Source of the DNA: Microthyrium microscopicum
Taxonomy: Eukaryota
NCBI GenBank assembly: GCA_010405405.1
Contig: MU004233.1
Span: forward strand, 695,122 to 759,121
Reading direction: 5' to 3'
DNA: 64,000 nucleotides
The notes beneath the pieces are model-generated. The model did not search any database. It saw only the letters and a program-made list of their open reading frames with translations, and had not been told where the DNA came from. Positions 1-31,470 of the stretch are shown here, in pieces. How positions within the stretch are numbered: position 1 is the stretch's first letter; every line of letters begins with the position of its first letter. The position numbers were made by a program, and so were the translations under genes.

Positions 1-2859
1 CTTACTATTATTCTATAATTATTAGATTAAATAAGTTCTTTTAAATCTATTTTATACTTAGTTATTATATATAGAATAGCGTAGCTTTATAATAATTTTG
101 CTAGTAAATAAACTTCTAGTTGCGTCTTTAATAAAGAAAGTAATTCCTTACTTTATTCCTATAACCTCTTTTTTATTACTACCTCTCTCTTTTACTACTC
201 TTTATAATTATAAGAATTAAATAAGTCCTCTTAAATAATTCCTTAAGTTTATTCTTTTATAAATAATATAGCTTAGTAATCTAAAGTTTAGGCTAAATAG
301 CTAACTTTTAGTAGTTATGCCTTTAGACTTTAGTATAGTAAATAAGTTACTACTTTTATTACTATTATTTATCTTCTCTTCTTAATACTTCTTTTTTCTT
401 AAAGAAAATACTATCTAAATCCTTTATATCTTCTATCTTTTTCTTAGCTCTTACTCTATCTATTATAAGCATAGCTACTTATAATGCTTTATATACTTAG
501 TAATTAGTATATAATTATAATAGCTAAATCTATAGTTAAGATATAGATAAAGACGAAATTTTTACTAAGATCTTTAGCTATTTAGCTATTATAATCCTAA
601 AACTTCTTCTTAATTAGTACAAAACTTATACTCTTTATAAGGATAATAAGCTAAATAATTTTAAGGCTATTAAAATATAAGTTTAAAGAAATTTATTTTC
701 TTATTCCTAGTTAATTACTTATATAGACTAAATTTTATAGCTATCTCTACCTACCTAGCTAAAGAGAATCCTTTACCTATATTCTTAGACTTAAGTAAAT
801 AAAATCTTAAAACTAAAAATAAAGGTAAAGTAAAAGTTTAAAATAGTTTAGAAGCTTCTAAATATACCTTTATACTAACGCCTTAAATAGATTCTAAGAA
901 TCTTTAATATACTATTTATAATCTTATAGTAAATCTATTTAATAGTAAGCCCTTAATTTAATAGATCTATAGCTTATAAGTATATTTAAGTAAGCCTTAT
1001 TTAGAAAATATACTAAAGAAAGGTTTAAAAGTAGCTCTTAGTAAAGATAATCTAGTTAATAAAGTAAATTAATACTTAGGTAATAATATTAATAATAAAG
1101 TTAATTAAGATAGTACTACTAGTAAGCCTAAATATATATATAGATTAAAAAAGAAGTATTAATAGGCTATAGTTTCTAATATTAAAGTATAATTCTTTAT
1201 AATAAAAAATAATAAATAGGTTACTTAATTTATATTAACCTTAACTATCTACCTATATTTTAGAAATAAGAGAAATACTTTTAAAGTTAATAAGAATAAA
1301 AATAATATATAGAAAAATATTATAACTTTAATAGTTAAAACTATCTACTTCTTACTAAATAATCTAATTATAAAGAAAAAAAAAATAAACTAGATAATTA
1401 CTAAGTTTCTTATAGTTATCCTAGAGAAGTAACTTATCTAGTTAGCTTATAAGATTAATTAAGACGTTAAATACTATAGAAGTATACTAGCTATAAGCTA
1501 TATAATTATACTTATTATTAAAATATACCTTAATCTATCTAATAACTCTTTTTAAGTCTACTCTATTATAACTAGCAATTTAATAGTTAATAGTAAAGAT
1601 ATTAAATTTAACCTACTTCTTTATTATCTCTAATATACTATTTAGAATTAATACTTTATAGTCTTCTAGTTCTTTAAGGTTAATACTAGCCTAGCTATAC
1701 TTATAGAAAAGAATCTTTCTTAGCTAATCTCTTAAGGTGCGTAAACTAATCTAGATATTATTCCTACTAATATTAATTATCTATTTATAAATAGCGTCTT
1801 TAGCCTATAGAAGGGTTATATTACTCTCCTAGATAATTATAATAATCTTATAAAAGTAAAGAATAATAGAATTATAAATTTATTATATATAGTCTATCCT
1901 TTAGTCCTATATCTATTTATAGCTTAGAGTATAAATCTAGTAGAATAGCTTTATTAGGCATATAAGTAGAATAAAGCTTTTTATAATACTATATTACACG
2001 CTACTAGAATACTAGGAAGTAAAAACTATAAATTCTTAGTAAGCCTTAATTTCTATATTATAACAAATAGATATAAATATCCCTATTTTTAAGAAAGTAA
2101 CGTCTATATAATCTAACTTAAGCTAGAAGCTAGACTTAAAGGCTTTTAATTTACTATTAAAGTTATTAACTAAGACTATAATATTTAAGCTACTTATAAC
2201 GTACTTATAATTATATACTATCCTTCTATTATACCTAATAATAAATATGCTAATAATACTTAATTCTCTTTATTCTAAATTTCTAAAGAAGTTATTATTT
2301 CCCTAAACTATAGCTAATTAATTAAGAACCTATATAAAGCCTTTCTTAAACTAAAAGAGCTAGAGGTTAAGGTATATATATATAATTTAGATAAGCTTAT
2401 TATACGCTAAATAAATAGTCTTAACTAAATATAGTTAAGATAGAAAAAATATAATCTAGATTACTACTTTACTATAGTACTTAGCTTATACCTAGACTTC
2501 TTAAAATATTAACCTTTATTAAAGAAGATTCTTACTATTTATACTTTACTCTTACTCCTTAGAAAGATAGAATTTAGTATTATATTAAAGTATACTAAAG
2601 AAGTATTAATAAATACTAACGCGCTAAAAGAGTTAACTATAAAGGTTAATAAAGTATAAAAGGATACTTTATTAGGTAACTTATTTTCTAGTAATATTAA
2701 GAATAACGCGTTAAAACTTTTAACTAGTTAGATTAAAGAAACTTTAAAAAAAATAAGTAGTAGTTCTACTTTATAAAAGCTAATTAATAAGCTACTTAAT
2801 CTAAATTTATCTAACTATATAACTAAATCTTAGTTTAAATAGGAATTTAAAGCTAATAA

Positions 2860-3270
2860 TAATAATACTTCTTATTCTCTCTTTCTCTCTATCTAAGATA
2901 ATATTAATATAGAATTCCTAGATACTACTATAATAGCGCTTCTCTATTCTATTAATAATAGTACCTCTTAACCCTTTTACCCCTTCATCTAAGATAATAT
3001 TAATATAGAATCCCTAGATACTACTATAGTAGTACTCCTTTATCTTAATAATAATAGTACTTCTTATTCTTCTTTCCCCTCTATCTAAGATAACGTTAAT
3101 ATAGAATCCTTAAATACTACTATAGTAATACCCCTTTATTCTACTAATAATAGCATCTCTTATTTTCTCTCTTCCTCTATTTAAGATAATATTAATATAG
3201 AATCCTTAGATACTACTATAGTAGTGCCCCTCTATTCTATTAATAATAGTACCTCCCTCCTTATAGAGTC
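2860..3270 (+). repeat. Four tandem 96-bp units (32-codon period)
   Basis: '(c/t)taagataa' recurs at 2893, 2989, 3085 and 3181; units differ mainly by transitions. Confidence 0.9.
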
Positions 3271-3307
3271 TTAAGCTTAGGATTAATAAACTAAGCTAGA
3301 AGTTACT

Positions 3308-3549
3308 AAAGCTAATAGTAAATAGGGTTAGTAATTAAAAGTAGCTAATAATGAATAGAGTTAGTAATTAAAAGCGGCTAACAATAAATAGGGTTAGTAA
3401 TTAAATATAGCTAACGACGCTAATAATAATAATAATAATAATAATAATACCTATAAAGATATACCTAAAGATATTTCTAATTCTAATAAATAGTTAGATA
3501 ATAAGATTACGCCTATAAAAAATACTAATAATACTAATAATAGTAATAC

Positions 3550-3580
<31 letters not shown>

Positions 3581-3615
3581 ACTAATGTTAATAATACTAA
3601 TATTAATAATAATTA
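3308..3615 (+). repeat. Three 33-bp tandem units followed by (aat)n tracts
   Basis: 'gctaa....aatag(g/a)gttagtaattaaa' x3 at 3311-3415; aat runs at ~3421-3449 and ~3525-3612, plausibly RIP-converted gat/gac acidic codons. Confidence 0.8.
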
Positions 3616-3779
3616 GTACTAGTTACTAAGCACTTTTATAGGACTAGGCATAGCTACTTCTATATAATTACTAAAGACTAACTTTAAAATTACCTTAGAA
3701 AAGATTTAAAATTTTATAAAAAAAGCAGAATAGATTAGTATTATAAAGGCTCTTTATAAGGATTAAAAAGAATTTATTA

Positions 3780-5770
3780 ATATTATTCTCTTAAAAGGTA
3801 GTAAGGATAGACTTAATATCTACTATACTAGGCTAGAATATAGTAAGACTAAAACTATAAAAGCTATAATAGCAATATTAATCGCCCTTATAATATTCTA
3901 TTCTAATTTTAAGATAAAGATTTTAGCTATATATACTATAAACGCATAATTAGATAACCTTATTACTAAGTATATAAATATCCATATAGAAGTTAATCTT
4001 ATAAACCTTTTACAATTTTTTGCTATCTAAGGATACTTAATTAAAATAGAGAAATTTATTATCTTAAGGAAATTAAAAGAGGTATAAATCTAAGTTTATT
4101 AAAATTAAAGTCTTAGTACGTAATAGTAGAATATAGATAATATAAATAACTATAGTACTAATATTCTAAATACTAAAATAATATTACTTACTAAATAGTA
4201 TAGTGCTTACTACTTATAATAACTCTATATAAATGCTAAACGTTAAAACTTTAAAGATATCTATAACTATTATATTAAATATTTTAAATACTTATTTAAA
4301 GAATTTATAAATTAAGCTAGTAAAATAATTAGCATAATTAACTTAGTAATAGGAAAGCAAAAATACAATATAGATATAGCTACTAAAGAGTTACTTAATT
4401 ATACTTTTAATTTCTAAATTCTTAACGAAAAGTATTATAATAGAAAGAAGCTCTTAAAGTTAGAGAGCGCTAATTATAGTAAACTACTACTAGATATAGA
4501 GCAATATTATTTATAATTAATAATTACTCTTCTTAGTCTTATAAACTATAACGCTCTATAAGAGCTTTTTTAGGCAAATTTTATAGATATTAACTTATAG
4601 ATTTATAATAAAGTAGCAGCATTATATAGACTATAGATAATAGCTATTATATCTTTATATAGACTTTAAATAATTATATAGACTAGAGATTTATTTTAGC
4701 TTAGACCTATTTATAATCTTAAATATAAAAAAGCTACGTTTTATAATAGTTCTTAAGCATTATTAATATATAACGCTATAGTAAATAGCTTTAGCTAAAC
4801 TATACTAAAATAAGTATTTAGATTTAATTTATTATACTATAATCTTCTTAATAATATAAGCTATAAAATTCTTAAATATACTAATAATAATAACCCTAAA
4901 TTTAACTAACTATAATACATTATAAGCTAGCTCTTTCTATCCTTAGAATATAAAAAAGATACGCTACTTATAATATTTATAAATATTAAAGATAGTAAAG
5001 TTAAAAAAGATATTATTAGTTTAAGTTCTAATACTTATAATACCTATATTATAGCCTTTATATAGATTAAACTTTTACTATAAATATAATTAAAAGGCGT
5101 TAATACTATAGTTATTACTCTTTACCTTACGTAAACTAGCCTCTATACTAAAACTAAAGATTAGCTACTTAAATAAGTTACTATATATATTTAGAATAAT
5201 TATATATATACCTAGTAAGATTATTAAGATATACCTTTATAATTTAGCTAGGTTTTAATAACTATTTATAATAATAGCTCTAGTACTAAGTATAATTAGA
5301 ATCTTATTAATCTTATTTAAAAAGATTATACTAGTTTCCTTATAGAAAACTTATAAATAAATACTATAATATCTTAAGGCTACTTATCCTTATTCTTTAG
5401 TAACTTAAAGCTTTATAGTACTATAATAGCTTCTAGTGCTAAGAAATAAGAGGAGTTTAAATAATCTATACTTAGTAGATTACTAAAGCATTTTATTAAT
5501 AATAGCTATATATAGTATATACTATTTACTAATAATTACTCTTATTAGAATTTAGAGAAACTTAATATTCTTAACTTTAATAGAGTAGTTTCTTATTATA
5601 AGAAAGAGCTAAATATACGTAAAGAAATTAAAACTATTATACTTAAAGAACTAGAGGCAATTAAAAATCTTATAGAACTAACCTTACTTTATAGTTTTAA
5701 ACCTAAGAGTAAAGAATTTAAAGCTAATAAAGCTAATAAAGAAGGTAAAGTTAGTAAAGATTAGTAGTAA
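3780..5770 (+). pseudogene. RIP-inactivated UPF1/DNA2/NAM7-like superfamily-1 helicase (AAA_11/AAA_12 type); frame probably extends upstream toward ~700
   Basis: All motifs lie in frame +2, in the right order, and revert by C>T/G>A only. 3830 RLEYSKT (Walker A, GPGCGKT); ~3920 ILAIYTINA*LDNL (motif Ia); 4607 NKV (DEA); 4685 RDLF*LRP (GDxxQLxP); 4802 ILK*VFRF (LxxQYRM-like); 5111 VITLYLT* (VITPYxAQ); 5333-5405 SFL...*INT..S*G....FSN (GFL..R.N...SR....GN). Ends approximate. Confidence 0.8.
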
Positions 5771-6539
5771 AAAATAGTAATAAGAAAAAAGATAGCAAGA
5801 AGGTTTAAGTTTAAAGTAAAGTTTATTTAGCTAATTAATTAACTAACTTAAATAGTATAATAGTTAGTATTAAATAAAAAAAGGGTTTAGGATAAAGGAG
5901 TTATATAAGTAGAAAAATTTAATAAAAAAGAATATATAAAGGGGTTAGACTAGAAAGGTAAATAGAATAGTACTATTACTAGAAAAGTTAACTTACTAAG
6001 CTAGTAATTAATAATATAAAGTTACGTAATACGTCTCTAGCGTAAAATTATAACTTATTAGTTATATAAGATTAGCTAGTACTTCTACTTAATCTTAGTA
6101 CTAGCTATCTAGAATATTTAGAAATATTTAGTACGTCTAGAAATATTTAGTAAGTAAAGGTATATTATATATATAATAAAATATTATTAAGTAATATTCC
6201 TAAGAGTTAACTCTATTACTTAAGCCTTAGAATACTAAGTAAAATTAAATGCTAGTTATTACTAGTATAAATTTAATACTAAATTTATTACTTATATACT
6301 AAGGATATATTTATATCTTTAAAAGTTAATAAGAACGAAATAGGTATAAAAGTTAATATACTAATATAACGCTTCTAGTATCGTATATAATAATAAAAAA
6401 AGATAATTAAATATAGATATATCTAACTTATATATTTTAGTTCCTTAGTATATATTTAACCTAAATAAGTTATATTACTATTCTTATAGACTAATCTTCT
6501 TAAATATAAGTATATTAAGTCTTTTAAATAGTATATAGT

Positions 6540-9500
6540 TCCTCTTTACTATAAATTCTTATAATTACCTCTAAAGGCTCTTTAATTAAGTATAAAGGTT
6601 AATACTAGTAATAAAAACTCTAGTAATAGAATCCTTTATAAATAGTCCCTTTACTAGTATAAGATTTATTACTTATCTTAGTTATAACTATACTACGTCT
6701 AAAATACTTATAATAAAAGATAAGATAATTATACCTTTTACTATACTCTTATTTTTAGCTACCTTTAAAGCTATAGAAAGAGTTACTACTCTAATATAGT
6801 ATAAATATAGTTTATAAAATAGAATAGATAAAGCTAATAAGTCTTAAAAGTCTAAGAGCAATATATAATATATAGTTAATAAAGTTATTATATACTTATA
6901 ATAAAATCTAAGATATCTAGTAAGTATATCTATACTAGCTTATAAAACTAATAAAAGCTATAACTAAATTAATAAGTATAAGCTACTACCTTAAAATACT
7001 ATTAAGATAGAGTACTAATATTATTATTTAGAAAAAGAAAAGCTTTATAAAGAAGTAAAGCTATAGAGTTAATTAGAAAAAGAATTAGAGTTTATTAGTT
7101 AGATAGTTTTTAGTAGTACGTTAAAGAATAAGATAAATAAGTTATTCTAGAGAATAGTCTTTAAGAGTAAAATACGTAACTTACTTAATTAAAAGGTAAA
7201 GGATTATAAATTACTAATAAAAAATATTAATAACCTTAAAGGCTTTATACCTAGTTAGTAAGAAGTAATACTTAAGGAGCTACTATATAATAAGATAAAA
7301 AGTATTAAAAATCTTTTAGGTAGTAAAGTTAAAGTATACTTTTAGAGTATCTTAGAGATTATTAAATTCTTTATCTCTTATAGGCCTTTTACTAAAGACC
7401 TTTACTTTAAGCTTATAATATAAAAGAATAAAGATAGTAAGTATATTTATACTAATACTTAATTAGTAGAAAGATAGTAGGAATTATAAAATAAGGTTAA
7501 TTTAGGTATTATACTTATTCCTATTTACTAGAAGTTAAATAAGACTATAATATTTAAATAATGTAGTAATAATTATATATAGGCTTACTATATAACTATT
7601 TTTAATCTATTAGGAAGTATTAGAAGAGCTATAGAAAGACTAGGATTTCTTCCTATTATAATACTTCTTAAGCTAAAAAGTATAAATATTAATAGTAAAC
7701 TTAAGATATTTTATAACGCTATAGATATTATATTTAAAGGTTTAATATTACGCATTTAAGTATTATAAAGCTATTTACTAATAAAATATAGAACTTAGAA
7801 TAGTCCTTAAGAGTAATTACGTTATAATAATTACTAATAACTAGTTTTAAAGGTATCTTCTAATTCTTACTTACGTAAGTATAAATTATAAAGAGCTTAT
7901 TATAATTATAAGTATTTAGTTTAAATATTATTATTCTATTTACTTAGTACTATAACTATATTAGTAAGATCTTACTAGTAAATAGGCCTATTAGACTTAT
8001 ATAACTTTATAAGAGAATATATTAAAATAGAAAGCACTTTACTACGCTAATTAAAAAAAAGAGTATACTAAGTAGCTTACTACTACTAATAATACTAAAG
8101 GTAAAGACTATATTTATAAAATTTATAATTTTACTTAAAATTATTCTTTATTAAATATTTATATAGTAATTACTTTTAATTTATTATATATATTCTTTTT
8201 AAATAGACTAGTTAAGTAAGTAATAGACTAGATAGCCTAAATTATTTTAGAAAAGAGAGTACTAGTAATATCTATAGCACTAGTAGCTAAAATAAAGAAT
8301 AATAGAGCTATATAGAAAACCTATACCTATAAGACGCTAAAGACTAAGAAGAAAAATAGTAATATACTAAAGACTAAGTAGAAGAAGAAAAAGAAGAAGT
8401 CTATATTTAGTATAAAAGCAAAGTCTATAATTAATTATAAGTTTCTATAGTATTTTATTTATTTAGGCTTTTTAAGGATAGCCTAAGGCTATTATAATAT
8501 TTAATAGAAGATTAGCCTAGAATTATAAGTACTTTTAAAGTAACTTATAGCTACCTTAGCTCTACTCTTAATTCTAAAGAATCTAATTATAATAAAATTT
8601 ATTAAAGCTTTAATAAATATTATTATACTTTCTAGCTATAAGTTATATAATAAAAATATACTTAAATATATATAAGTCTATTTATAAATTATAAAATATA
8701 CTAAAATAGTAATATATAAGTATAAGACTTTTTAAGCTAGGTTTAAAGAGCTTAATTTCCTTAAGTTTTATAACTTAATTTATCTTATACTATCTATTTA
8801 TATATTTAGTACTATAGATAGAACTAGTTCTAGTATTATAGAAAAGTTATATTAAAAGTATACTATACTAGTAGTAAAATAAACTAACTTTTAACTTAGT
8901 TAATATATTTAGATAATCTACTATCTTACTAATTATATTAAGAATATAATCTAGAATAATAATAATAACTATAACTATTAAGTCTATAATATTACTAAGA
9001 AAAAGATTATATCTAAAGAAACTTATCCTATAATTATTCTATTAAGTACGCCTAAATATAGTTTATAACTCTAATTATATTATATAGATAAGCTATATAA
9101 TAAGGGTATTTATAAATTTAGTATACTTCTTACTAAAGACGTTAGTAAATAAGCTAAGCTTAATAACCTTAAGGGTTATTTATATAGCTAGTTAATTAAT
9201 TACTATAAAAAAGACCTTAAGAAGTACTAGTCTTTTCTAAAGCTAATACTATTACGTATATAGGGTAAAGAAATATACTTAGATAAAGATCTTATTAATA
9301 ATAAACTAAACTTTATATACTTTAGTAAAGCATTATATCTTAACGCTTTTTAGCTAAGTTACCTTATTATAATACTATATAATAGTATAACCTACGTAAT
9401 AGATAATAATAAGAATAATATATAACTCTTTATAGCTTACTATAAATAGAAATAGTAAAAAGGTAAGGATAATAATTAATAGTATAATAAAGTCTTAACT

Positions 9501-10210
9501 AAGAACTACTAGTAATGTAACTTTATATAGGCTTAGGCCTATCCTATATCTAAGAAAGAGCTTAATAATAATTTTAGTCTTTTAGATTAACTTTTTATAT
9601 AACTACTTATTATTTATATAGTATATAATATAGATTAAATAATAAAAGATTTTAAATTATAGCGTAGATATACTAAATTTCTTATAGCTTTAGTTTAGAA
9701 GTATATACTAATCTTAGAAAAAGCTATAGAACTTATATTTAATAGGCTATTAGGTCTTATATTATTTAAGCTAGCTATAAAGTTAAAAGTATATAAACTA
9801 AATAAACTATTAACTATTATATATATAGTTCCTTATAAGGACTTAAAGTATCTTAATTACTATTAGTTAAATTTATATCCTAATTATAATAATTATACTA
9901 GAATATATAACCTAGTTACTTTTAGTAAATAAAGAATTAAGGCGGCTAAGGCTAAAACTATAGTAAGACGTAAGGCCTTAAAGAAAAAGAATAAAAAGCT
10001 TTATAAAGCCTAGGTTAAAGTTTATCTTAAGAAGCTTACTAATAGGGTAAAGAGAATAAAGTATAGTAATAAAAAAAAAGTAAAAAATAAAGAAGATAAA
10101 CTAAATAGTAGTAAAAAGGATAAGTAGAAAACTAATAAAGATAGTAAAGAAGAAACTAGTAATAATAGTAAAGAAGATAATAGTAACGATAGTAAAGATA
10201 TATAGTAAAA
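6540..10210 (+). pseudogene. RIP-inactivated Plavaka-family transposase
   Basis: From ~7442 frame +2 reads YIYTNT*LVER**EL*NKVNLGIILIPIY*KLNKT...SNNYI*AYYITIFNLLGSIRR, matching the Plavaka core WWxxQ..LP.G.T..PI...SDKT....GD..AW..Y.TI.N....RR. After a likely intron (~7740-7791) come PILA.V.VDYEE...CP.C-like remnants, and at 8751 LNFLKFYNLIY..SIYIFSTID....EKLY (FNFPKFH.L.H...I..FG..D....E..H). Acidic/basic tail ends ~10210. Boundaries approximate. Confidence 0.8.
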
Positions 10211-13105
10211 TAAAGGTCTAATAGACGTTTTATTACTTAAGAGTTATATATTTTATAGACTACTAAGTATTATTATTATTATTATAATATTATCTCCTAA
10301 GTAATTTAGTTTTATTAGTATTAGTTATAGACTTAAATATAATAGTTAGTATAATATAAAATATAATAAAATAAATTAACTTAAGAACTTTAAGAATATA
10401 TATTTATATAGAATAGTATATATATAAAAGGCAAAATTATTTATTCTTTTTAATAGCTTTTAATTTATAATTCTTTAAATAAAATAATAAGCTATTAATT
10501 TTAAATCCTTTTTCTTTAGTACTTATAATAATCTAAACTTATTTTACTTTTTTATCTTACTTTTAATATATATATCTTCTTTATACTTTACCTTAAGCTT
10601 TTATAAAGAGCTTATCTAGTTACTAAACCTAAACGTTACCTAATAATTATCTACTACTTATAGTAATAATTAAAATAGTAGCTATTTACCTTTATTATAT
10701 ATCTTTATTATCTTAGTTTTTAATAACCTTCTTTATTTATAATAATTTACTTAGTTAATTAATAACTTTACTACTACTTATTATAATACTATTATATCTT
10801 TTATTTAATTCTATTATAAACTATATACTATAGTCTTTAAGATAACTAAAAACTATACTTAACTCTTTTAGTATCTTTATTTAAAGTATACTCTTATCTA
10901 AAAAATATAAATTATAAATACTTAGAATTCTAGACTACTTATTAACTCCTTAAAGCTATTATACTAGCTAAATTAACTTCTAAGCTAGAAGAGAATAATA
11001 ATAATACCTTAGACTTAGATATAGAATCTCCCTTAGAAACTAATTAAACTAAACTTAAGTATAAAGTTTACTTAAACTCCTATACTACTTATTAGTAAAA
11101 CCTTAGTTCTACTAAATAGACTACTAGCTAACTTATAAATACTATATTACTAGACTCTCTTTAATAAGATATAGTCCTAGAAGTAAATAAGTAAGTTATT
11201 ACTATATAAATATATAAAAATTAGATTCTTAAGTAGGGCTTTAGCGTCCTTCTAAAAGTAGTTAGGCTATTAGTATTAGTACTAATAATAAAGGAGGAAA
11301 TATAGGCGTAGTATTTTAATATATATTAAAATATTTATAAAGTACTAAATCTATAGCTATCTATATAATATATATTATATTATAGTCTAATTAGAGTATA
11401 GTAGAAATCTTCTCTTCTTAGCTATAAATAGTAAAGCTCGTAATAAGAAGATAATTATTATATAAAGATATAAGGTATCTCTTTTTAAATAGATAAAGAG
11501 AAAGAATAAGATATAGGTATAAATAATACGCTATTTAAGAAAAATAGAAGTAAGAGTTTAACGTAAGCCTAATAGAATTTATAATCCTATTAGAATATCT
11601 TTAATTTCTTTATCTTTAAGTAAGTAAGACTTTATAATTAAAGCTTTTAGATCTACTCTTTACGTCTTAATAAGTATAAAGCTAGGTTTCTTTTAGTATA
11701 GTGCATTCTAAACGTTAGTGCTTAATCTTCTTAAGTTATTATAAATAAGTATATTAATATTAGTTAATTAGCTTCTATCTTACTTCTTTTATATATTAAA
11801 TCTACTCTACTAGTACTACTTATTATCTTTTAGCTAGCTCTTAATTAATAATTACGTTAGCTTTAGTAACTAATTAATTCTTATTCTACTATAGATAGTA
11901 ATACTTCTTCTACTTAACGCTATAAATATAATAAAACTAATTAACTATATTTATAACTAATTTTCTAGTATATTAGTATAAGATAGAAACTTAAAAAGTA
12001 TAGCTTACTATATATAGTAGTAGCTAGTATCTAGTTTAATTATTAATTTATAAGTATTATAATACTACTAATTTATTTTTATAGCTAGTACAAGTATAGC
12101 TTATAAAGCTTTATCTTTAAAATAGTTACTATACCTTATTAGTCTAGAATTATAATATCTTAATATATATTAAAGAGATAGTATCTATTATTTAAAGTAA
12201 TCTTAAAACAAGATATAGAAGCTATTAATAAAGATAAAAGACTCTAAAGGTTTAAGTATCTTTCTATATTATATTATTAAAAAAATATAATAATTAAGTA
12301 CCTTACCTAGTATATTTAGCTTTCTTATACTAAATATATATCTAATAGAAGCATTTATTATATATTATAACGTTAAGACCTAAAGCTATAAATAAAATAA
12401 AGAATTTTTCATAGCCTAATTTACTATAATAAAGCTAGTTCTTAGTAGTAAACTTAATAGCTACTAACTAAAAAGCGTTTAATTCTTTAGGTAATAGAAC
12501 TAGCGTAATAAGCTTAATTATAACTTTTTATTAATAGCAACGTAAAGAGAAGTAGTTTTTATCTTTAGTAGCTAGTAAGAAGAGCTTTTTTAAAAGATTT
12601 AGAAGTTATTATTCTTTAGTAGCTTAATAATAATATTATAAAAGCTTTTAGTAGCTAAATAAAGAAAAATATTAGATAGTACTATTAATAGATTTAGGGC
12701 TAAATATCTCTAAAGTTACAACTAAACTAAAACTTACTAGAATATTACTATTATTAAACTAAACTTAACTCTTATACGTTCTATCTTCTATTAATATTCT
12801 TAATATATTCCTTATACTCTACTATACTCCTTCTTACTTATACCTATAGCTATTATATTCTATATTATATTTAGGTATTTATTACTATTATTTAAATTAA
12901 ATAAATAGCTATTTATAATAGCTATAATATATAATAAACTTATAACTAAAATTAAGCTAAACTATATACTAAAGCAGAAGGTTATTAAGATTTTTAGACT
13001 TATTAATACCTTATTTAATATACTTTAACTTATATTTATTAGTACTATATTAGAGTACTAAAGTACTAGAGCTAGACCCTCTTTCTAACTCTCTTAATTT
13101 CTTAC

Positions 13106-13505
13106 TACTAAGGTATAAGCTCCTTTTTATCTTTAAATAAGTTTAAGTAATAACTTATAGAACTTAAGGTAGCATTATATTAATAATAAAATAGTATTAA
13201 TATAATATTATTTCTTAAAGAGTTAATATATAGCTACTATAAAGGCAAAATAGCCTTAGAGTAATACTATAAAAGAATAATTATAGCGCTAGTATTAAGG
13301 TAAACGTTACTATATTACCTTAATAATATTCTTATAAGTATTATATTATAAGTATATACTAATTATATAATAATAATAATAATAACGCATAGCAGTATAC
13401 TACTAAGGTATAGATTTCTCTTCCTCTATAAATAAGTTTAAGTAACGACTTATAATACTTAAGGTAGTATTATATTAATAATAAAATAGTATTAACGTAA
13501 TATTT
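13106..13505. repeat. ~100-bp direct repeat at 295-bp spacing
   Basis: 'tactaaggtata...aataagtttaagtaa..acttata..acttaaggtag.attatattaataataaaatagtattaa' at 13106 and 13401. Confidence 0.8.
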
Positions 13506-15179
13506 TCTCTAATAAGATTTTATAAAAGAGAAATAGTACATTAAATAAAAAGTAAAAGACTTATTAGTAATAATAATAATTTATATAGATAATAGAATTT
13601 TACTTTAAAGTTACTACCTTAATATTTTTATTTATTATTTAAAAGCCTAGTAGTATTATAATAAGTACTACTACTATACGCTTTATAAACCTAATCTATA
13701 GAACGTTATATACTTATACTATAGCTTATTATACTATAAGATATACTAAAGTTAGCTCTAGTAATTTAAATTAAGTCTTTATAAATATTTCTAGACTTTT
13801 AAGTATATATAAACTTATATTTACTTATAAAGTAGATTAGCATATAGATAACTATTATCTTATATCTACTTTATCTTATGCCTACTATATAGTTATCTTT
13901 ATTATAAACCTATATTACTAAAATAATTTTTAAAGTTAAGGATAAAGTTAAAACTAGGCTAGCTACTCTATCTAAGTAATATTTTATACTTTAGTACTCT
14001 AAGTATAAAAGATACCCTATTAATATTATTATCTATTAAAATAGTATATTAAAAGAATAATATAAAATAGCCCTTAATACTAAACTTTTCTAACTCTATA
14101 AACTATATAAAGGGCTCTATTCTATTAATAATACTACTATAAGCCTTCTATATATAATACTTATTATTATAGCTAAATATCCTTATAATTTCTATTCTAC
14201 TAGCCTCTAAGATACTAGCTATAAGAGTAACTATTACCTTCTAGTATTTATATAAGAGTAGTTTTCTATTTACTATAAAAATTAAGACTTTAGTTATATA
14301 CTAATAGGATATATATACTATAAAAAATTATAAATATTAAATAAGATTCTTAAAGTAGGTAATTATATATCTAGTAATAGGGCTACTATTTTTAAACTAT
14401 TAAGTAGAATATTAAGAAGAATTTTAAATACGTAACTACTTTTAATAGTAATAGAGATTAACTTAATACCTATTATGCTTTACCTTAACATTTATTATTA
14501 CTTACGTCATTACTTATATACTTATTAGTTTTAGTTATTTCTAAATAGATTACCCTTATCTTAAACCTACTACCTAAAAACTAGTTCCTTACTATTACTT
14601 TTATTATTATAAATAATTAATATACTACTAAAGAATACCCTTAACTAAAGTAATTATATGCTTACTCTATTTATTTAGCTTATATTATTCTATAATAAAC
14701 CTATATTACTAAAATATAAAGTTAGAGTTTATAAAGTTAATAGTAATACTATTACTTCTTAAAATACTTAAGTAAGGCTTTATAACTAGCTTTAACTAGC
14801 TTTGCTACCTATATTTTAACTAATCTATTTAAAATAGTAATTATAGTAATATTAAACTACTAAACTTTTCTATTAATATAGAAGCTATATTTAGTATAAA
14901 AGTAATACTTTTAACTTAATATATATTACTATAAAGGAAAGCTATTACTACTTAGCTTCCTTAGAGAATACTATATTTAGAGGCTATTACTATTATATAT
15001 AGCTACGTTACCTTTTCTTACTTATACTTTTAAAGTACTCTAGAAGTCTAAGAACGTTTAGAAAAGTACTTTAGGTATTTACTACTTAATACTCTTTATT
15101 CTCTATAAGATCTACTTTATATAAGAAAAGGTTAAAGATATTATAGTAATACTTAGTATACTACTCTACTTCTACTACT

Positions 15180-15830
15180 ATAAAAGTTACTTTTATAGCT
15201 ACTACCTTAGCCCTTCTATATCTTTATTTTAATTACTATAGAACTTACCTTTACTACTATTACCTCTTTCTTTATTATTATCTTAACTACTATAGAATTT
15301 ACCTTTACTATATATTCTATATATCCTAAGGCCTTTAATATTTTAGTTAGCTTTATAAATAAAGTAATAGAATTATATTAAAGTTTAGAAGTAATAAGAA
15401 GAAAGAAGATAGAAATAAAAGATATAGCTAGGCTATTATTAAAGCTACTAAGTAGATACTAGAAGAAGCGTAATTAATAATAATAATAACTACTATCTCC
15501 TTCTTTATTAAATCTACTTTTATATTAACTACTATAGAATTTACCTCTATAGCTATTACCTCCTTCTCTATTAAACTTACCTTTACCTTAACTACTATAG
15601 AATTTACCTTTATAACTACTACCTCCTTCTTTATTAAACCTACCTTTACCTTAACTACTATAGAATTTACCTCTATAGCTATTACCTCCTTCTCTATTAA
15701 ACCTACCTCTACTTTAACTATTATAAAATTTACCTTTATAGCTATTATAATTACTATAGTAAAATATAAAGGGCTTATTAAGTTAAAGAATATAGAAATT
15801 AAAGTAATAAAGGAATAAACCTTAGGCAAA
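15180..15830 (-). repeat. 63-bp (21-codon) tandem repeat, probably a RIP relic of a repeat-containing coding region
   Basis: 'actatagaatttacc' at 15531, 15594 and 15657, with related copies at ~15235 and 15289; gives the EKEVIAIEVNSIVVKVKVGLI repeat of ORF 15428..15829. Confidence 0.8.
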
Positions 15831-17212
15831 AATTATTCTTAATTATATTAGAATAGTAGATATCTAAAGATTTAGTAGTTACTAAAGTAATTACTAAGGT
15901 ATAATAACCTTTCCTTCTTAGTTAAGATAGTACTTTTCTTAAATCTTTTCTTTAGCTTTAACTTAATTTAATCTCTTCTCTCTCTCTTTATTTTACTTTC
16001 TACTTAGCTTAAGTATAAAAAAAGCGCTTATTAAAGTTATTTTAATAGCTTTTATATAGTATAATACTAAAATATTACTATACCTAAAAAAGTACGTTTC
16101 CTTATAGCTACTTAAGACTTTAAACCTTATATATAAAGTAAAAGAAACCTTATTTTCTTATATTATAGATACTCTTTATATAAAAGATAAGAAAAATTAA
16201 TAGCTAAGTATAGGTAGCTTATTTTCCTTCTTTACTTTATTTTCTATACTTACTTAGTTCCTTTAAATTAATTATATAAGACGTATACTTACTTTATAGT
16301 CTCTTTTTTTATAATAGATATAATAAATAGAGTTCTAGATAACTCTTACCTTCTTAAATTAGTAGTAGACTATATATATTTATATACTTATCTACTATAA
16401 GAGCGTAAAGAAGTTATAAAGCTTTATCTTATTTACTATTTAATTAATATTATACTATTATATATAGTAAGACTACTTTTTATAAGCTTATATTTATTAA
16501 GATATAGAAGTAGCTATATAGTTTTATATAAGTAAATACTATTTCTTATCTATATATACTTAATAAGTAGTTTTAGTTATATATAGCATATAAATAATAT
16601 ATATATAGATATTTAGTATAGCTATATAACTTTTATATTATTAAAGTTATAAATATTAAGTAGTTTAATAATATATTTACTATTAGTAAATAGAAAAAGG
16701 CGTTTTAAGTATACCTTCCTAAATTAGAAGTTAACTAAGTAGGTTTACTATTTCTAGATTATAGTTAACTTAGTAAAGTAGTTAAGGACGTAGATTCTTA
16801 ATATTAGGAAGTACTTATTAATAAGATAATCTTTTTTAGGTAAATTAAGTAAAGCGTTTAATTAACTTTATATTATATTATAAAAGAAAAGTAGATAGCT
16901 TATTTTAGAAGAATTCTTTATTAGGCTAGCAAATTATAGTAGAGTTATAAGAAGCTAAGAGATTACCTTTAGCTACTACTCCCTATAATAAATATCTTAG
17001 TAACTATTTAGTTTATATTAATTAAAATAGTATCTAACGTTAGCTATAATAATTAGCTAACTCTTCTTTAACTTCTTAATATATTCTTTAACTACTTTTA
17101 CTAATCTAATATAAATATAGCTATAATTAAACTATAAAAAGTCTTTCTATTTATTAGAGCTAATTTATAATAGCTTTATCTTAATAGTAGCTTATTAACT
17201 CTTTAAAGATAC

Positions 17213-17935
17213 TATACTAGTGCTTAACTTATAACTTCTTATATATTAGTTAATATTAACGTTAGTAAGGTAGCTTTCTATTCTAGTAGGCTACTACCTA
17301 AGCTTATAATATTCTATTAGAGTAATTATAATACTACTAATATATATAAATTAGCTTAGTTCTTATTTTATATTTATATAAAACTAACCTATCTAAAAGA
17401 GCAAAAGAATAAAGCTAGCTAAGTAGTTATATAAGCAAAGGATATATATAGCTTAGCTAATATTAATAATAGCTACTTCTCTAATAAGAAGTTACTACCT
17501 AACTCTAATCCTATACTTAGAGAACTAATATAAAGTTTCTATATTTAGTATAAGCTATAACTATCTACTATCTATACTAGTGCTTAACTTATAACTTCCT
17601 ATATATTAGTTAATATTAATATTAGTAAGGTAGCTTTCTACCCTAATAGGCTACTACCTAAGCTTATAATATCCTATTAAAGTAATTATAATACTACTAA
17701 TATATATAAATTAGCTTAATTCTTATTTTGTATTTATATAAAACTAACCTATCTAAAAGAGCAAAAGAACAAAGCTAGCTAGATAATTATATAAGTAAAA
17801 GATATATATAGCTTAGCTAACGTTAATAATAGCTACTCCTCTAATAAGAAGTTACTACTTAACCCTAATTCTATACTTAGGGAACTAATATAAAGTTTCT
17901 ATATTTAGTATAAGCTATAACTACCTACTATTTAT
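17213..17935. repeat. Tandem duplication with a 360-bp period
   Basis: Lines 17221-17580 and 17581-17940 align column for column; differences are almost all C/T and G/A. Confidence 0.95.
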
Positions 17936-18299
17936 AGATTATTATTCTTATCTAGTAATCTATTAATAACTAGCTATCCTAGCTTTATTATATTTATAAT
18001 AAGAGCCTAAATATTTTAGTAAAAGCTTATCTTCTTACTCTTAAGAATATACTTAATAGCTATAATTTCTTTATATACTTATAAAAGCTAGCTAGACTAA
18101 GAATATTAAGAAGCTATCTAATTACTAAGTTATTTTTTGCTATTACTTACCTAAGCTTCTAAAGTACTAACTACTATGCTTACTATAAGAATATTTAAAG
18201 GCTATAATCCTACTACTAAAGCTTTAGGTAATAATACTAAAAATAAGTCTAGTACCTAAATAATCTTAATTATATTAGAGTTAAGGTAAACGTAATTAT

Positions 18300-21200
18300 T
18301 ATTACTATAAATAACTACTCTAAGTATTTAATCTACCTACTTATAAATAAAGTTAAAGTAGTCCTTAGCTACTTCTTTAATAAGTTAAAAGTATAGATAT
18401 ATTTATTAACGTAATTACTTAGTTTCGTACTTTAACTTTATAGAAGCGTATACTAAATACTTAAAAGGAAAGTAAAGTTAATAAGAAATAGACTTAGTAA
18501 TAAAAAGTATAGAATATATAAACTCTTTAACTACTTTAGTTAATAAACTAACCTTTATAGTTCTTAACTTAAAAGATATAACCTATAAGTATACAAAATT
18601 TATTAGTAATTAGCTAATATATATTCTAAAAGCATTACTTACTAATAGACGCTTTAAAGTTTTAAAATTCTTTAATTACTTTATTACTAAAACTAGTACC
18701 TAGCTTATAAGAATCCCTTATAGTATTATAATTAAACTACTTTTAGTACATTAGTAGGTTAATAACTCTAATATTATTAGATATTCTACTTTTCTTTATA
18801 GAAGCTTTTCTATTACCTAATTTATTTATTAGCCTTAGACTAAGAAAACACCTACTACTATAATATAGGCTTTCCTACCTTAATAATTAGTATACTTTTA
18901 TTAACTTAAAGATAACTACTTTTCTTAATAATATTTATTAGATTACTAAGTCCTTACTAATATAAGAATTATAAAGATACTAAACTCTTAACCCTAGCTT
19001 TATATAGCATTCTTTAACTACATTTATTATAAAGAAACCCCTTTCTTTATCCTAAAGGAAAAGCCTATATAAGATACTACTAAAATATCTAAGGAAATAT
19101 TTAAAAAAATCTAGTCTATTTACTATTACTCTTATTATTATAGTTAACTAATATATTACTAAAGGTACTATTACCTTACCTACTCTTAATATTATTACTA
19201 CTTTATCTAGGTACTAAATATATCTAAATATAATAAAAGTTGCTAGTAAGTAACGTTCCTATATGTAGTAATAACTTCTAGATAACTATTATTACTCTAA
19301 GTATCTAATCTACCTACTTATAGATAAAGCTTAAGGTAGTTCTTAGCTACTTCTTTAACTAATTAAGAGTATAGATGTATTTATTAACGTAATTACTTAA
19401 TTTAACTATAAAGGCAATATACTACTTACTTAGTAGAGTATAAGATATAAAAATAGCGCTATCTTAACTAAAAAGAAAAGGTTATTACTCCTTAATAACT
19501 ACTTTAGTAACTATTAAGTCCTTAAATATAACCCTAGCTTTATATAGCGTTCTTTAACTATATCTATTATAAGAAAACCCCTTTTATTATCTTAGAAGAA
19601 GAGCTTATACAAGATACTACTAAAATAACTAAAGAAATATTTACCTACTTAATACCTTTACTATATTACTTAAGTATTCTTACCTAGTTTAATAGCTATA
19701 TAATAGTACCTCTATTAGACTAGGAATAGTAGATAAATCTCTAACTCTACTAATTACGTAAAGAAGTAAATAGCACTATATAATTAAAATAACAACTAAG
19801 CTACTTTTAGCTTAATTTATATACTATTTACTATTACTCTTATTATTATAGTTAACTAATACACTACTAAAGGTGCTATTACCTTACCTACTCTTAATAT
19901 TATTACTACTTTATCTAAGTGCTAAATATATCTAAATATAATAGAGATTACTAGTAAGCAACGTTCCTATATATAGTAACGACCCCTAGACGACTATTAT
20001 TACTCTAAGTATTTAATCTACCTACCTATAGATAGAGCTTAAGGTAGTCCTTCCTTTATTATATTACTTAAGCATTCTTACCTAGTTTAATAGCTTATTA
20101 AAGGCATTTATAAAAGCTTATAGTATATTAAATATTTCTTCTTATTATTAAGCAAAATTATACTAGAAATATATTCTACTTAGTAAATTCTTTAGACTTT
20201 AAATCTAATACGTATATAAACTACTAGAGTTAAGAACGCTACTAAAAGCCTCTTAAGTCTAGCTTAATAAACTATATAATAGTACTAAATATAGAAATTT
20301 TTAAAGAAAACTCTCTTATTTCTATAGGAAAAATAATTTAAGAAAGAAAAAAGTTAATAATACCCTTTAAGTAGTATAAAATAAAAAAAACTTCTTTAAT
20401 ATACTATAACTAGTCTTTAATATTAATCTTTATTAGATTAGGAATAGTAAATAAATCTCTAACTTTACTAGTTATATAAAAAGGTAAGTAGCACTATATA
20501 ATTAAAATAATAACTAGGCTACTTCTAGCTTAATTTATATACTACTTACTATTACTCTTATTATTATAATTAACTAATATACTACTAAAGGTACTATTAC
20601 CTTACCTACTCTTAATATTATTACTACTTTATCTAGGTACTAGATATATCTAGATATAATAGAGGTTGCTAGTAAGCAACGTTCCTATATATAGTAACAA
20701 CCCCTAAATAACATATAGTATTAAGGGTTATAAGGCTTTATATAGAATTTTCAAAGTATACTATAGGTATAATTAGATACGCTAAATAGATTCACTACTA
20801 TAGGCGCTAGTTATTACTCTAAGCATCTAATCTACCTATCTATAGATAAAGCTTAAAGTAGTTCTTTCTCTACTATATTACTTAAGTATCCTTACCTAGT
20901 TTAATAGCTATATAATAGTACTAGATATAGAAATTTTTAAAGGAAACTCTCTTATTCTTATAAGAAAGATAATTTAAGAAAGAAAAAAGTTAATAGTACT
21001 CTTTAAATAGCATAAAGTAAAAAAAACTTCTTTAGTATACTATAACTAGTCTTTAATATTAATCTCTATTAGACTAAGAATAATAAATAAATCTCTAACT
21101 CTACTAGTTACGTAAAGAGGTAAGTAGTACTATATAATTAAAATAATAACTAGGCTACTTATAGCCTAGTAGAAGTAATGTCTTACCCTTAGTATAGTAA

Positions 21201-22270
21201 GTATATAAGACCTTATTATAAAGAATTATATAGTATATAAAATAAGTAATACCTTAAAGTATAGAGTAAGATTAGAGATAAAAGTCCTAAGTATAAGCGT
21301 TAATAATACTATAATTAATAATAATACTAAGATAATAGTTATTATTATAGTCTACGTCCTAGAGACTAGTAAAATAAAAATAAATATAGTAGTACTTTAT
21401 AATAATAAAGAGTATTATACGCAAACTTAGCTTAATTTATATACTACTTACTATTACTCTTATTATTATAGTTAACTAATATACTACTAAAGGTACTATT
21501 ACCTTACTTTACCTTACCTACTCTTAATATTATTACTACTTTATCTAGGTACTAAATATATCTAGATATAATAAAGATTACTAATAAGTAACATTCTTAT
21601 ATATAGTAATAATCCTTAAATAACTATTATTACTCTAAGTATCTAATCTACCTACCTATAAATAGAGCTTAAAGTAGTCCTTAGCTACTTCTTTAACTAG
21701 TTAGGAGTATAGATGCATTTATTAACGTAATTACTTAATTTAATCATAAAGGTAATACATAGCTTACTTAACAAAGCGTAAAATATAAAAATAGCGCTAT
21801 CTTAACTAAGAAAAAAAGGTTATTACTCCTTAGTAACTACTTATAGTAGTAACTACTAAGTCCTTAAATACCTTCTTAGTTAGCTATAATAAATATAAGA
21901 AATATATTTTTCTACTAGGTCTAGGAAATAAAAGCCTAGTTATATATCCTACTTATAACCTACTAAAACTAGAATAATAATATTAAAAGCTAATTAAAAC
22001 GTTTAGGAAGGATAGATTATAAAAGCAATATATAGCTTACTTAAGGCGTAAGATATAGGAATAGTAATATCTTAACTAGTTAGAAAAGGCTATTACGCCT
22101 TAGTAGCTAATTATATAGTAATTTTTAATCCCTTTCCTTAAAAATTATATTTTCTACCTAAAGATTATAACTACTTTATCTAGATACTAGACATATTTAG
22201 ATACTAATATCTAGATATATTTAGATATATTTAGACATATCTAGATATATAGAAAGTTACTAGTAAGTAT
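18300..22270. repeat. Mosaic array of shuffled 60-170-bp modules
   Basis: Module A (tactctaag.at.taatctaccta) at ~18316, 19285, 19992, 20811, 21622; B (actattactcttattattata.ttaactaat) at ~19121, 19831, 20549, 21451; C at 18991/19531; D at ~20307/20944; E at ~19715/20433/21069; F at ~19451/21789. Confidence 0.85.
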
Positions 22271-22329
22271 TATTTATATTCTATTATACATAGCTCTAGC
22301 TATAATAAATTTACTTAAGTATAGTATAA

Positions 22330-22730
22330 GCTATACTTAAATAACTATAATATACTTAATAAGTTTAAAATATTTTAAATAGTTTTATAATATTTCTAAT
22401 AAAGTATATAATATCTTATATATATTTAATATCTTTATAATAAGTTTAAAANNNNNNNNNNNNNNNNNNNNNNNNNNNNNNNNNNNNNNNNNNNNNNNNN
22501 NNNNNNNNNNNTACCTAATAAGTTTAAAATATTTTAAATAGTTTTATAATATTTCTAATAAAGTATATATTATCTTATATATATCTAATATTTTTATAAT
22601 AAGTTTAAAATAATTATAATATACCTAATAAGTTTAAAATATTTTAAATACTTTTAAAATATTTCTAATAAAGTACGTAGTTATCTTATACGTATTTAAT
22701 ATCTTTATAATAAGTTAAATATAACTTTTC
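22330..22730. repeat. ~110-bp tandem repeat array containing the assembly gap (60 N at 22452-22511)
   Basis: 'taataagtttaaaatattttaaata' at ~22358, 22517 and 22627, on both sides of the gap; true copy number unknown. Confidence 0.85.
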
Positions 22731-22767
22731 TAGTATAATATATAGTCTAATTTGTAATGTATAATAA

Positions 22768-22780
22768 TTTTTTTATAATG
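22768..22780 (-). mobile_element. Candidate CACTA-like terminal sequence of an element inserted into the gypsy
   Basis: Reverse complement cattataaaaaaa differs from the En/Spm terminus CACTACAAGAAAA only by C>T/G>A changes, and lies exactly where the gypsy RT frame stops being recognisable. Confidence 0.45.
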
Positions 22781-30806: not shown

Positions 30807-31470
30807 ATTGGAAAACAGTAGTGATGTTATCTGATGTCTCTCCTTTGGTCAAATGTCCAGTAGATCACCTCATGGTATTGAGGAAGTCAGTTTGGAACCA
30901 GGTCGGATTGCGGAAACGTCGTCAGCACCGTGGACATGCGCCTGAGCTGGCAGTGCACCAATCCGCTTCCGTGGCTGAGTCCAGTCTGGGCATACCTAGC
31001 CCATCAAATGGAATAGCTACTTCGTAAGGCTGAATCGACGTGGCGTTAGGCTGAACATGAAGTAAGAAATTCTCCCTTGGTCGATCGACAATTATTAGCT
31101 TTGTACATGATTTGTCTTGCAATCTCAGCTAGTAAATCATGTCCAGAAGTTCATTGGCTTTTTAAGAACAGAATGTCAACATGGTGGTTAGCTTTCGCAG
31201 TCTCTATACTGAGTACTCAATGTCGCTATCAATCACAGTCTTACCATGTTCAGCCTGACTGGCCAAAATCTCAATAAATGCATGCGATATGCGCAGGAAT
31301 AAATTGGCACTTTTCCTTTCAATGTTTTTCATGATTGGTTTCCCTCCAGACCATCTCTTGCCTGTTGACCATGTGATGACGTGACGCTTTACTTTCCGGT
31401 CTTGCTGTTGACTCTATTTTGTTCGCATATCTTGTCCTTGTTTCAAGATGTCATGCTTACTATATCAGCC

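Follow-up and report, generated by a model that had tools for sequence, protein, structure and literature searches.

What does the long AT-rich block at the left of this locus represent, one giant transposon or several repeats that have come to lie side by side? The window, meaning the whole 64,000-nucleotide stretch of Microthyrium microscopicum DNA analysed here (assembly GCA_010405405.1, contig MU004233.1, positions 695,122 to 759,121), opens with almost 29 kb of DNA that bears the marks of repeat-induced point mutation (RIP). An earlier note, made from the letters alone, had read positions 1-22780 as the right part of a single Plavaka/CACTA-like element of more than 22.8 kb, carrying cargo and ending inside the reverse transcriptase (RT) of a gypsy element. 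Plavaka, a lineage of DDE transposons akin to CACTA/EnSpm, forms a poorly characterised branch of the CACTA/EnSpm-Transib-RAG1 transposase group. The results favour a smaller unit. A dead, RIP-mutated Plavaka element of ~7-9 kb with two genes, a Upf1-like helicase of superfamily 1 (SF1) and a transposase, likely lies here in a mosaic of repeats beside a truncated gypsy element.

The state of the block limits what any search can recover. Over 1-28,900 (no strand; open at the left window edge and adjoining a gene with a HET domain on the right) the GC content is 17-24%, compared with 44-53% in the gene-bearing right half of the window. TA/AT is 1.5-1.9 and (CA+TG)/(AC+GT) is 0.02-0.11, with 6583 TA, 96 CA and 52 TG dinucleotides, and only one open reading frame (ORF) of at least 80 aa occurs within 1-26000. 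Judged by this composition, the block carries the signature of RIP in a filamentous ascomycete, as the earlier note had recognised. RIP is known from Pezizomycotina, and the genes that follow the HET-domain gene on the right flank (polyprenyl synthase, APP1, PTR2, MFS, XPG) fit the same reading. As RIP converts D to N, E to K, H to Y and C to Y, a relic cannot display such residues. Protein relics were aligned with a RIP-aware local aligner written for this analysis, in which every relic codon stands for a weighted set of the codons that RIP could have turned into it (T from C, A from G); scoring is by BLOSUM62, with nulls from shuffled sequences. Pfam scans, with stops read as X, covered three ranges: the + strand of 1-6 kb, where no family was found, a single + frame of 6-12 kb, and all six frames between 12 and 29.4 kb. 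A homology-free lead to coding relics came from codon-phase statistics (stops per 150 codons and G at codon position 1). Over ~676-7650 stops number 7-19 per 150 codons (7-14 in most places) in the + frame whose codons start at 2 mod 3, and this frame is enriched in G at the first codon position; the neighbouring + frame mostly has 21-52 stops. The 0-mod-3 + frame shows an equivalent low-stop pattern over ~8100-10575. A stop-density scan in 120-codon windows gave no clear coding signal.

The transposase relic lies on the + strand in two blocks. The first (6656-7738; Pfam, tblastn and RIP-aware alignment) holds the N-terminal region and Pfam model positions 36-195. The second (7779-10007; phmmer and RIP-aware alignment) holds the C-terminal two thirds, and a K-rich tail in the same frame reaches ~10.5 kb. 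When the + translation of 7800-10802, stops read as X, was compared with 1.84 billion proteins, phmmer returned seven matches at E≤1e-3 (best 7.6e-13), six of them with the Plavaka family PF18759. Pfam on 6002-8101 placed PF18759 itself at 7304-7744 (E=2e-5; 24.4 bits, 1.9 below the curated cut-off of 26.3). A scan of soil metagenome contigs with an alignment of five of the phmmer matches yielded 16 Plavaka loci, and by plain tblastn the two blocks match 12 and 7 of them (best 2e-18, locus L001). RIP-aware scores were 180.8 for 6656-7738 against aa 44-403 of L005 exon 1 (null 43.0±5.3), 294.8 for the same block against L001, and 439.8 for 7779-10007 against aa 14-671 of the 672 aa of L001 (null 48.6±6.6). 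Since these alignments run nearly end to end, the relic is by homology almost full length, and the Plavaka transposase relic of the earlier note is confirmed. It is the only Plavaka copy within 1-29 kb. A word-indexed protein search gave no match with the RIPed query, nor with P0003 as query for longer proteins.

Between the two blocks the frame switches over ~40 bp (7739-7778, +), as delimited by the ends of the two RIP-aware alignments. In all six intact relatives scanned (L001, L002, L003, L005, L006, L007) the ORF breaks at Plavaka Pfam model position 192/193. The switch in the window falls at model position ~193, so that 7739-7778 is probably a conserved short intron.

The intact soil relatives also indicate what may accompany such a transposase. 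Beside it, in 4 of the 16 loci (L003, L005, L008, L011), lies a co-oriented helicase ORF of 961-1311 aa with AAA_11 and AAA_12 domains. In L005 and L008 the helicase ORF (961 aa) is upstream and ends 0.8 kb before the transposase. In L003 and L011, which share gene order at 74-79% protein identity, it is ~1300 aa long, carries a C-terminal zf-CCHC in addition to AAA_11 and AAA_12, and lies 0.6 kb downstream. The two helicase types are only 22% identical to each other, and the closest solved protein to both is yeast Nam7/Upf1 (E=1e-42 for L005 and 1.6e-16 for L003). L005:1-8744 corresponds to L008:3577-12321 with 99.8% identity over 8745 bp that span helicase and transposase, and 422 bp beyond the transposase ORF, after ...GCGGATG, the two sequences part abruptly. 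At the opposite end the shared unit has ~270-bp subterminal tandem repeats (L005 30-1286); its left end was not found in the L005 and L008 contigs. With both ORFs intact, the unit is probably a currently active element. The co-oriented pairs and the 8745-bp unit support the earlier proposal that helicase and transposase form one mobile unit, and the two genes probably travel together in a compact unit of ~9 kb.

A second pair of loci gives a right end as well. L014:1-9216 and L015:3449-12478 differ by 861 transitions and 31 transversions (89.1% identity raw, 98.9% with transitions collapsed), and their shared DNA ends in ...CCCGAT[G/A], 0.5-0.75 kb past the transposase. Their 5' region of at least 6 kb contains tandem repeats and no helicase. 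This pair shares 43-47% identity with the L005/L003 group and 29% with L001, a value that rules it out as a close relative of L001. The differences between the two copies amount to RIP-like decay within metagenome contigs. Another observation from these loci is an SNF2-related ORF in L011 (3955-5433, -), 3.4 kb upstream of the Plavaka transposase and on the opposite strand.

Does the window contain such a helicase? RIP-aware alignment and collinear motifs place the relic of a Upf1-like SF1 helicase core at 4160-5383 on the + strand. The aligned strings show a Walker A-like site (4160-4189), Walker B (4601-4627; IYNKVA, as from ICDEA), motif IV (5108-5146; IVITLYLTXTS, as from IVITPYxAQ), motif V (5255-5317) and motif VI (5354-5383; XINTIISXGY, as from R-x-N-x-x-I-S-R), all on the + strand, in this order and spaced by 147, 169, 49 and 33 codons. 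The frame continues to ~5770, where a triple stop closes it. The gap to the transposase, whose alignment starts at 6656 and whose low-stop frame begins near 6.3 kb, is then ~0.5-0.9 kb, in line with the ~0.8 kb given in the earlier note. In the predicted frame of 3.4-6.3 kb two helicase cores scored 68.2 and 71.0, against nulls of 44.7±6.4 and 42.4±5.7; none of 150 shuffles reached either score, and the five other frames gave 34.6-51.2. The cores of L005, L003 and L011 have their best place in the same one of 198 bins (six frames across 29 kb), on the + strand and ending at 5228-5414. With codon-order-shuffle nulls at three weightings, the L005 core was significant in all three and the L003 core in two, that is, in five of six runs overall.

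Several points weigh against a helicase relic that belongs to the element. Under the heaviest reversion weighting the L003 core fails, since 24 of 100 shuffles reach its score of 41.7; the L005 core scores little more here than at the runner-up place in the window (68.2 against 65.7), and the Walker A-like site is short of one residue, a glycine. The region 3.6-5.85 kb is unseen by Pfam (E≤10), phmmer against the PDB, plain phmmer and tblastn, and plain phmmer with the relatives' helicases found nothing in six-frame translations even at E≤100. It is the custom RIP-aware scoring that detects the relic, with moderate support. The flanks of L001, L004, L007, L014 and L015 hold no helicase. The window transposase is nearest to P0003, P0004, L001, P0001 and P0008 (RIP-aware scores 435-462) and scores lower with the helicase-bearing group (230-345; L005 310, L011 258, L003 230), and L001, the sole locus of the closer group with flanks (2.8 kb upstream, 3.4 kb downstream), lacks a helicase.

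Alternatively, the helicase-like stretch could lie outside the transposon, as a chance resemblance in low-complexity RIPed DNA or as the relic of another gene or element, for example a Helitron. The failure of the standard searches and the bare flanks of L001 would fit this, as would RIP-aware scores of 63-79, far below the 180-440 of the transposase, and a first by-eye placement of motifs V and VI at 4980-5100, which was wrong and has been withdrawn as contradicted by the RIP-aware alignments. Yet both helicase types choose the same place and frame among the 198 bins, the motifs from Walker A to VI are collinear, and orientation and spacing to the transposase are as in L005/L008. In addition, Pfam gave no Rep/HUH or Pif1 signal when run on the + frames from 1 to 6 kb. 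An origin outside the transposon is regarded as unlikely, and a helicase relic at 4160-5383 as probable, though not proven, on the strength of the alignments.

If the two-gene element accounts for the left part of the block, what fills the ~12 kb between the transposase and 22.7 kb? Four repeat families, none assigned a strand, occupy much of it. A 58-63-bp tandem array lies at 15164-15748 (TRF, 63 bp x4.2; transition-collapsed self-BLAST) and a 360-bp tandem duplication at 17212-17936, whose copies are 93% identical raw and 100% with transitions collapsed. An array of at least four ~710-bp units extends over 18284-22134 (self-comparison, transitions collapsed); several unit pairs become 100% identical after the collapse, and inverted partial copies of the unit occur at 14147-14240 and 15799-15957. 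The ~110-bp tandem repeat of the earlier note is also present (22339-22726; TRF x1.9 at 22512-22724), and its unit recurs to the left of a run of exactly 60 N at 22452-22511. This run, absent from the earlier note, lies inside the repeat and 257 bp from the claimed end; it may be a gap in the assembly or a stretch of letters that was withheld, and it leaves the assembly at this place uncertain. Tandem copies at 17212-17936 and 19116-21891 go from 90-93% raw identity to 100% when transitions are collapsed. All differences between tandem copies are RIP-type transitions, and the duplications thus preceded RIP.

Coding relics were not identified in 10.6-22.7 kb, either by Pfam where scanned or with the ORFs from the relatives' flanks, which have no match anywhere in the window. 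In six frames Pfam found no family at E≤0.05 over 12-24 kb except a chance-level ArgoL1 row (E=0.044), and nothing beyond that row over 12-29.4 kb. In the transition-collapsed self-BLAST, 1-3.7 kb and 17-22.8 kb are not linked by any inverted match. On these comparisons the ~12 kb is made up of separate non-coding repeat families, and the cargo of the earlier note, together with the likeness to Starships drawn from it, is left without a demonstrated gene. Its use of the uniform RIP as evidence does not hold either, since the gypsy relic is equally RIPed and the parts are not distinguished in this way.

The right end claimed for the giant element is a 'CACTA-like' 13-mer, TTTTTTTATAATG, at 22768-22780 (no strand), which was assessed by motif counts and by alignment in the gypsy frame. 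In the 28.9 kb of the block TATAATG/CATTATA occurs 7 times and TAATG/CATTA 19 times, TAATG 8 times on the strand of the 13-mer; CACTA occurs 5 times and TAGTG 10 times, none of them at a demonstrable boundary. Exact-motif search and transition-collapsed self-BLAST found no inverted partner of the 13-mer in the window. Read in antisense, the 13-mer gives the codons D-I-I-K-K, which align with ...LTKK of a gypsy pol reference and so place it inside the pol frame, not beyond it; the gain in the gypsy alignment past ~22770 is too small to judge.

The neighbouring Ty3/gypsy RT relic itself (22780-23472, -) was detected by RIP-aware alignment, with homology secure to ~22780-22770 and the YxDD motif reading IYINN. 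Its references, L025 and L029, are Ty3/gypsy-like records from a viral collection, L029 with the layout PR-RT-RNaseH-IN-SH3-chromo. With the RT segment of L029 the score is 94.2 (minus strand, alignment end at 22878), compared with 47.0 at the next place elsewhere. A longer alignment from 23472 to 22624 (pol aa 309-587) scores 102.8 (null 45.5±5.7, maximum 63.5). Pfam and phmmer against the PDB left the RT frame unmatched. The RNase H, integrase and protease segments of L029 gave nothing above noise in 1-29 kb by RIP-aware alignment, and a search for RNase H-integrase on the minus strand of 10-15 kb, by eye and RIP-aware, gave nothing above the null. The gag of L029 reaches a marginal 70.0 near 25.0 kb (95th percentile 61.4). 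The RT is truncated near 22.75 kb, as far as homology can be followed, and the missing half is not detected elsewhere in the window. The earlier note was right in that a gypsy RT relic is cut at this place, whereas the 13-mer that it saw there is not distinctive and lies within the RT frame.

Two further observations concern the gypsy references. At ~11600-11684 (-) the zinc-knuckle end of the L029 gag scores 84.7, compared with a 95th percentile of 61.4 over the block, and this may be a CCHC relic or low-complexity noise. Most RT-motif matches in the viral collection (L017-L036), of which L025 and L029 were the two examined, are 7-8 kb long and have a single ORF of 1600-2040 aa, resembling plant pararetroviruses in layout.

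Could the whole block up to 22780 still be a single Plavaka-type element, at least 22.8 kb long, whose 3' side holds 12 kb of cargo or repeats and which inserted into the gypsy RT? RT homology is lost at ~22.73-22.78 kb and RNase H and integrase do not reappear elsewhere in 1-29 kb. The missing gypsy half is what a giant insertion predicts and counts against a simple mosaic, but a simple deletion predicts the truncation equally. As the protease is undetected and gag only marginal on the intact side, the missing RNase H-integrase signal is weak evidence. Positions 22776-22780 read TAATG, which is RIP-compatible with the ...TGATG end of PlavakaB (PMC12730594) and with the ...GATG ends of the two relative families; with 19 occurrences of TAATG/CATTA in 28.9 kb, no inverted partner and no shared subterminal repeat, the motif carries little information. 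Tandem repeats lie 40 bp inside the claimed end, and L005/L008 have their subterminal repeats at the end opposite the known one. From a red alga, Plavaka elements of 17.4-19.1 kb have been described that contain accessory genes as well as tandem repeats (bioRxiv 10.1101/2025.02.11.637652). Against these points stand the right ends of the relatives, 0.42 kb and 0.5-0.75 kb past the transposase and not 12.8 kb as here, the reading of the 13-mer in the RT frame, the lack of an identified coding relic in 10.6-22.7 kb, and the nearby run of N. A single giant element is thus improbable. The observations of the earlier note were largely right, and it is its headline of a cargo carrier of more than 22.8 kb that has no positive support, has the architecture of the relatives against it, and is correspondingly unlikely to be correct. 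If real, and the chance is equally small, such an element could be seen as a fungal counterpart of the red-algal giant Plavaka and a DDE-driven analogue of Starships.

Perhaps, instead, a Plavaka-helicase element of normal size inserted into the gypsy RT, with its right end at ~22.78 kb, and was later swollen by nested insertions and tandem duplication. The evidence at the claimed end would apply here as it does to the giant element. The direct and inverted repeats of 13-22 kb, whose copies differ by transitions only, would agree with duplication in place before RIP. However, nothing in 10.0-22.7 kb is tied to the Plavaka 3' regions of the relatives, the end motif is not distinctive, and nested elements are not identifiable by Pfam in 12-24 kb, all of which makes this course of events very unlikely.

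The preferred reading thus remains a compact two-gene element in a mosaic. What the comparisons show is homology (for the helicase, probable homology), the order and orientation of the genes, where the probable intron lies, and that intact relatives carry such a gene pair as well. The element would extend on the + strand from ~3.6 kb (perhaps already from 2.85 kb, where the tandem repeats lie) to ~10.5-11 kb, with the Upf1-like SF1 helicase first and, after the short spacer, the transposase with its one short intron. It would have moved by cut and paste through its own DDE transposase. Like those of the relatives, its ends would be of the ...GATG type and lie some hundreds of bp beyond the genes, and the helicase may have assisted transposition or escape from silencing as an accessory factor. 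The other ~12 kb, up to 22.7 kb, would consist of the 63-bp, 360-bp, ~710-bp and 110-bp arrays, duplicated locally and then RIPed, and the gypsy RT relic (23472-22780, -) would belong to a Ty3/gypsy element truncated independently beside them. Separate repeat families together with an independently truncated gypsy element argue for a mosaic and not for one giant cargo transposon. Two points go against this reading: neither end of the element was located in the window, where a fully RIPed ...GATG is indistinguishable from the background, and red algae have Plavaka elements as large as 17-19 kb (bioRxiv 10.1101/2025.02.11.637652).

Upstream of the helicase relic and in the same 2-mod-3 frame, a coding-like stretch at 677-3613 (+) shows low stops and G at codon position 1. 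It includes a 96-bp (32-codon) tandem repeat (2853-3255, x4.2), a 33-bp repeat (3310-3414) and a (TAA)n/(AATAAT)n tract (3421-3613), all found by TRF. The stretch is unlike the helicase N-termini of the relatives and has no Pfam family. On the other side, the RIPed block is directly bordered by the gene with a HET (heterokaryon incompatibility) domain at 29352-30848 (-). Further to the right, an unbroken ORF of 2989 aa (52413-61379, -) has 46.6% Ser and 10.5% Thr and no Pfam family. Its three-base periodicity is very strong, with chi-square values reaching 260 per 900 bp, and its product resembles a giant Ser/Thr-rich protein of the mucin or adhesin kind.

Plavaka and a Upf1-like SF1 helicase are thus associated in three settings: the helicase precedes the transposase in L005/L008, follows it in L003/L011, and precedes it in the window as a probable RIPed relic. 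It is fairly likely from these gene neighbourhoods that there are Plavaka lineages with a Upf1-like SF1 helicase as second gene, in either order, and that they are probably still active in soil fungi. If true, Plavaka would be the third DDE superfamily to have recruited a helicase, after AcademH and KolobokH, and the first with one of the SF1B type. This raises the question of whether the helicase aids transposition or counters RNA-based or homology-based silencing.

Plavaka was reportedly first named by Iyer et al. in 2014. Starships are giant cargo-carrying fungal elements mobilised by a tyrosine recombinase, the 'captain', and not by a DDE enzyme. The locus shares with them only the idea of a large element with extra DNA; a captain (DUF3435) was not found in the Pfam scans, which were confined to + frames below 12 kb and also missed the RT and the helicase. 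With CACTA/EnSpm the element shares a related transposase clade and, in L005/L008, subterminal repeats, while a terminal inverted repeat pair of the CACTA...TAGTG kind, which in CACTA/EnSpm proper goes with a target duplication of 3 bp, was found in the window neither by exact-motif search nor by transition-collapsed self-BLAST.

The closest comparison is with the fungal Plavaka elements, in which PlavakaA and PlavakaB were described by Kojima in 2025, with transposases that form a clade related to CACTA (CMC/CMCT), termini of TGT..ACA or CATCA..TGATG and a target duplication of 2-3 bp (PMC12730594). The window shares with them a homologous transposase (PF18759), and the ends of its relatives, ...GGATG and ...CGATG, resemble the ...TGATG terminus of PlavakaB (PMC12730594). 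The companion gene differs: TET/JBP is the one accessory gene that the consulted texts report for fungal Plavaka (PMC12730594), whereas in the four metagenome loci, and probably in the window, it is a Upf1-like SF1 helicase, and the word 'helicase' is absent from the searched part of the supplement text of that paper. The host differs as well, since the described families are mostly from Agaricomycotina (PMC12730594) and that of the window shows RIP. The giant Plavaka of the red alga Bostrychia (17.4-19.1 kb, with a PAG1-3 cassette) likewise combines a Plavaka transposase with accessory genes and internal tandem repeats; there the accessory genes encode DNA methylase/SET and ParB-like/2OG-oxygenase proteins, and 'helicase' does not occur in the consulted main text (bioRxiv 10.1101/2025.02.11.637652). 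In the literature searched, which excluded Repbase reports, subscription journals and bioRxiv supplements and was in part consulted as extracts, no report of a Plavaka-helicase pairing was found.

Helicase-encoding DDE transposons as such are known from AcademH and KolobokH (Kojima 2020, as cited in PMC10799480), which also unite a cut-and-paste DDE transposase and a helicase gene in one element. Their helicases are of the DEAD/Helicase_C type of superfamily 2 (PMC10799480), whereas those found here are of the AAA_11/AAA_12 SF1 type, and the transposase superfamily is a different one. Among cellular proteins the likeness is to the Upf1-like SF1B helicases (Upf1/Nam7, Sen1, IGHMBP2, DNA2), since Nam7/Upf1 is the solved structure most similar to the helicases of L005 and L003. 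The transposon copies differ from them in their unrelated N-termini and, in L003 and L011, in the zf-CCHC at the C-terminus.

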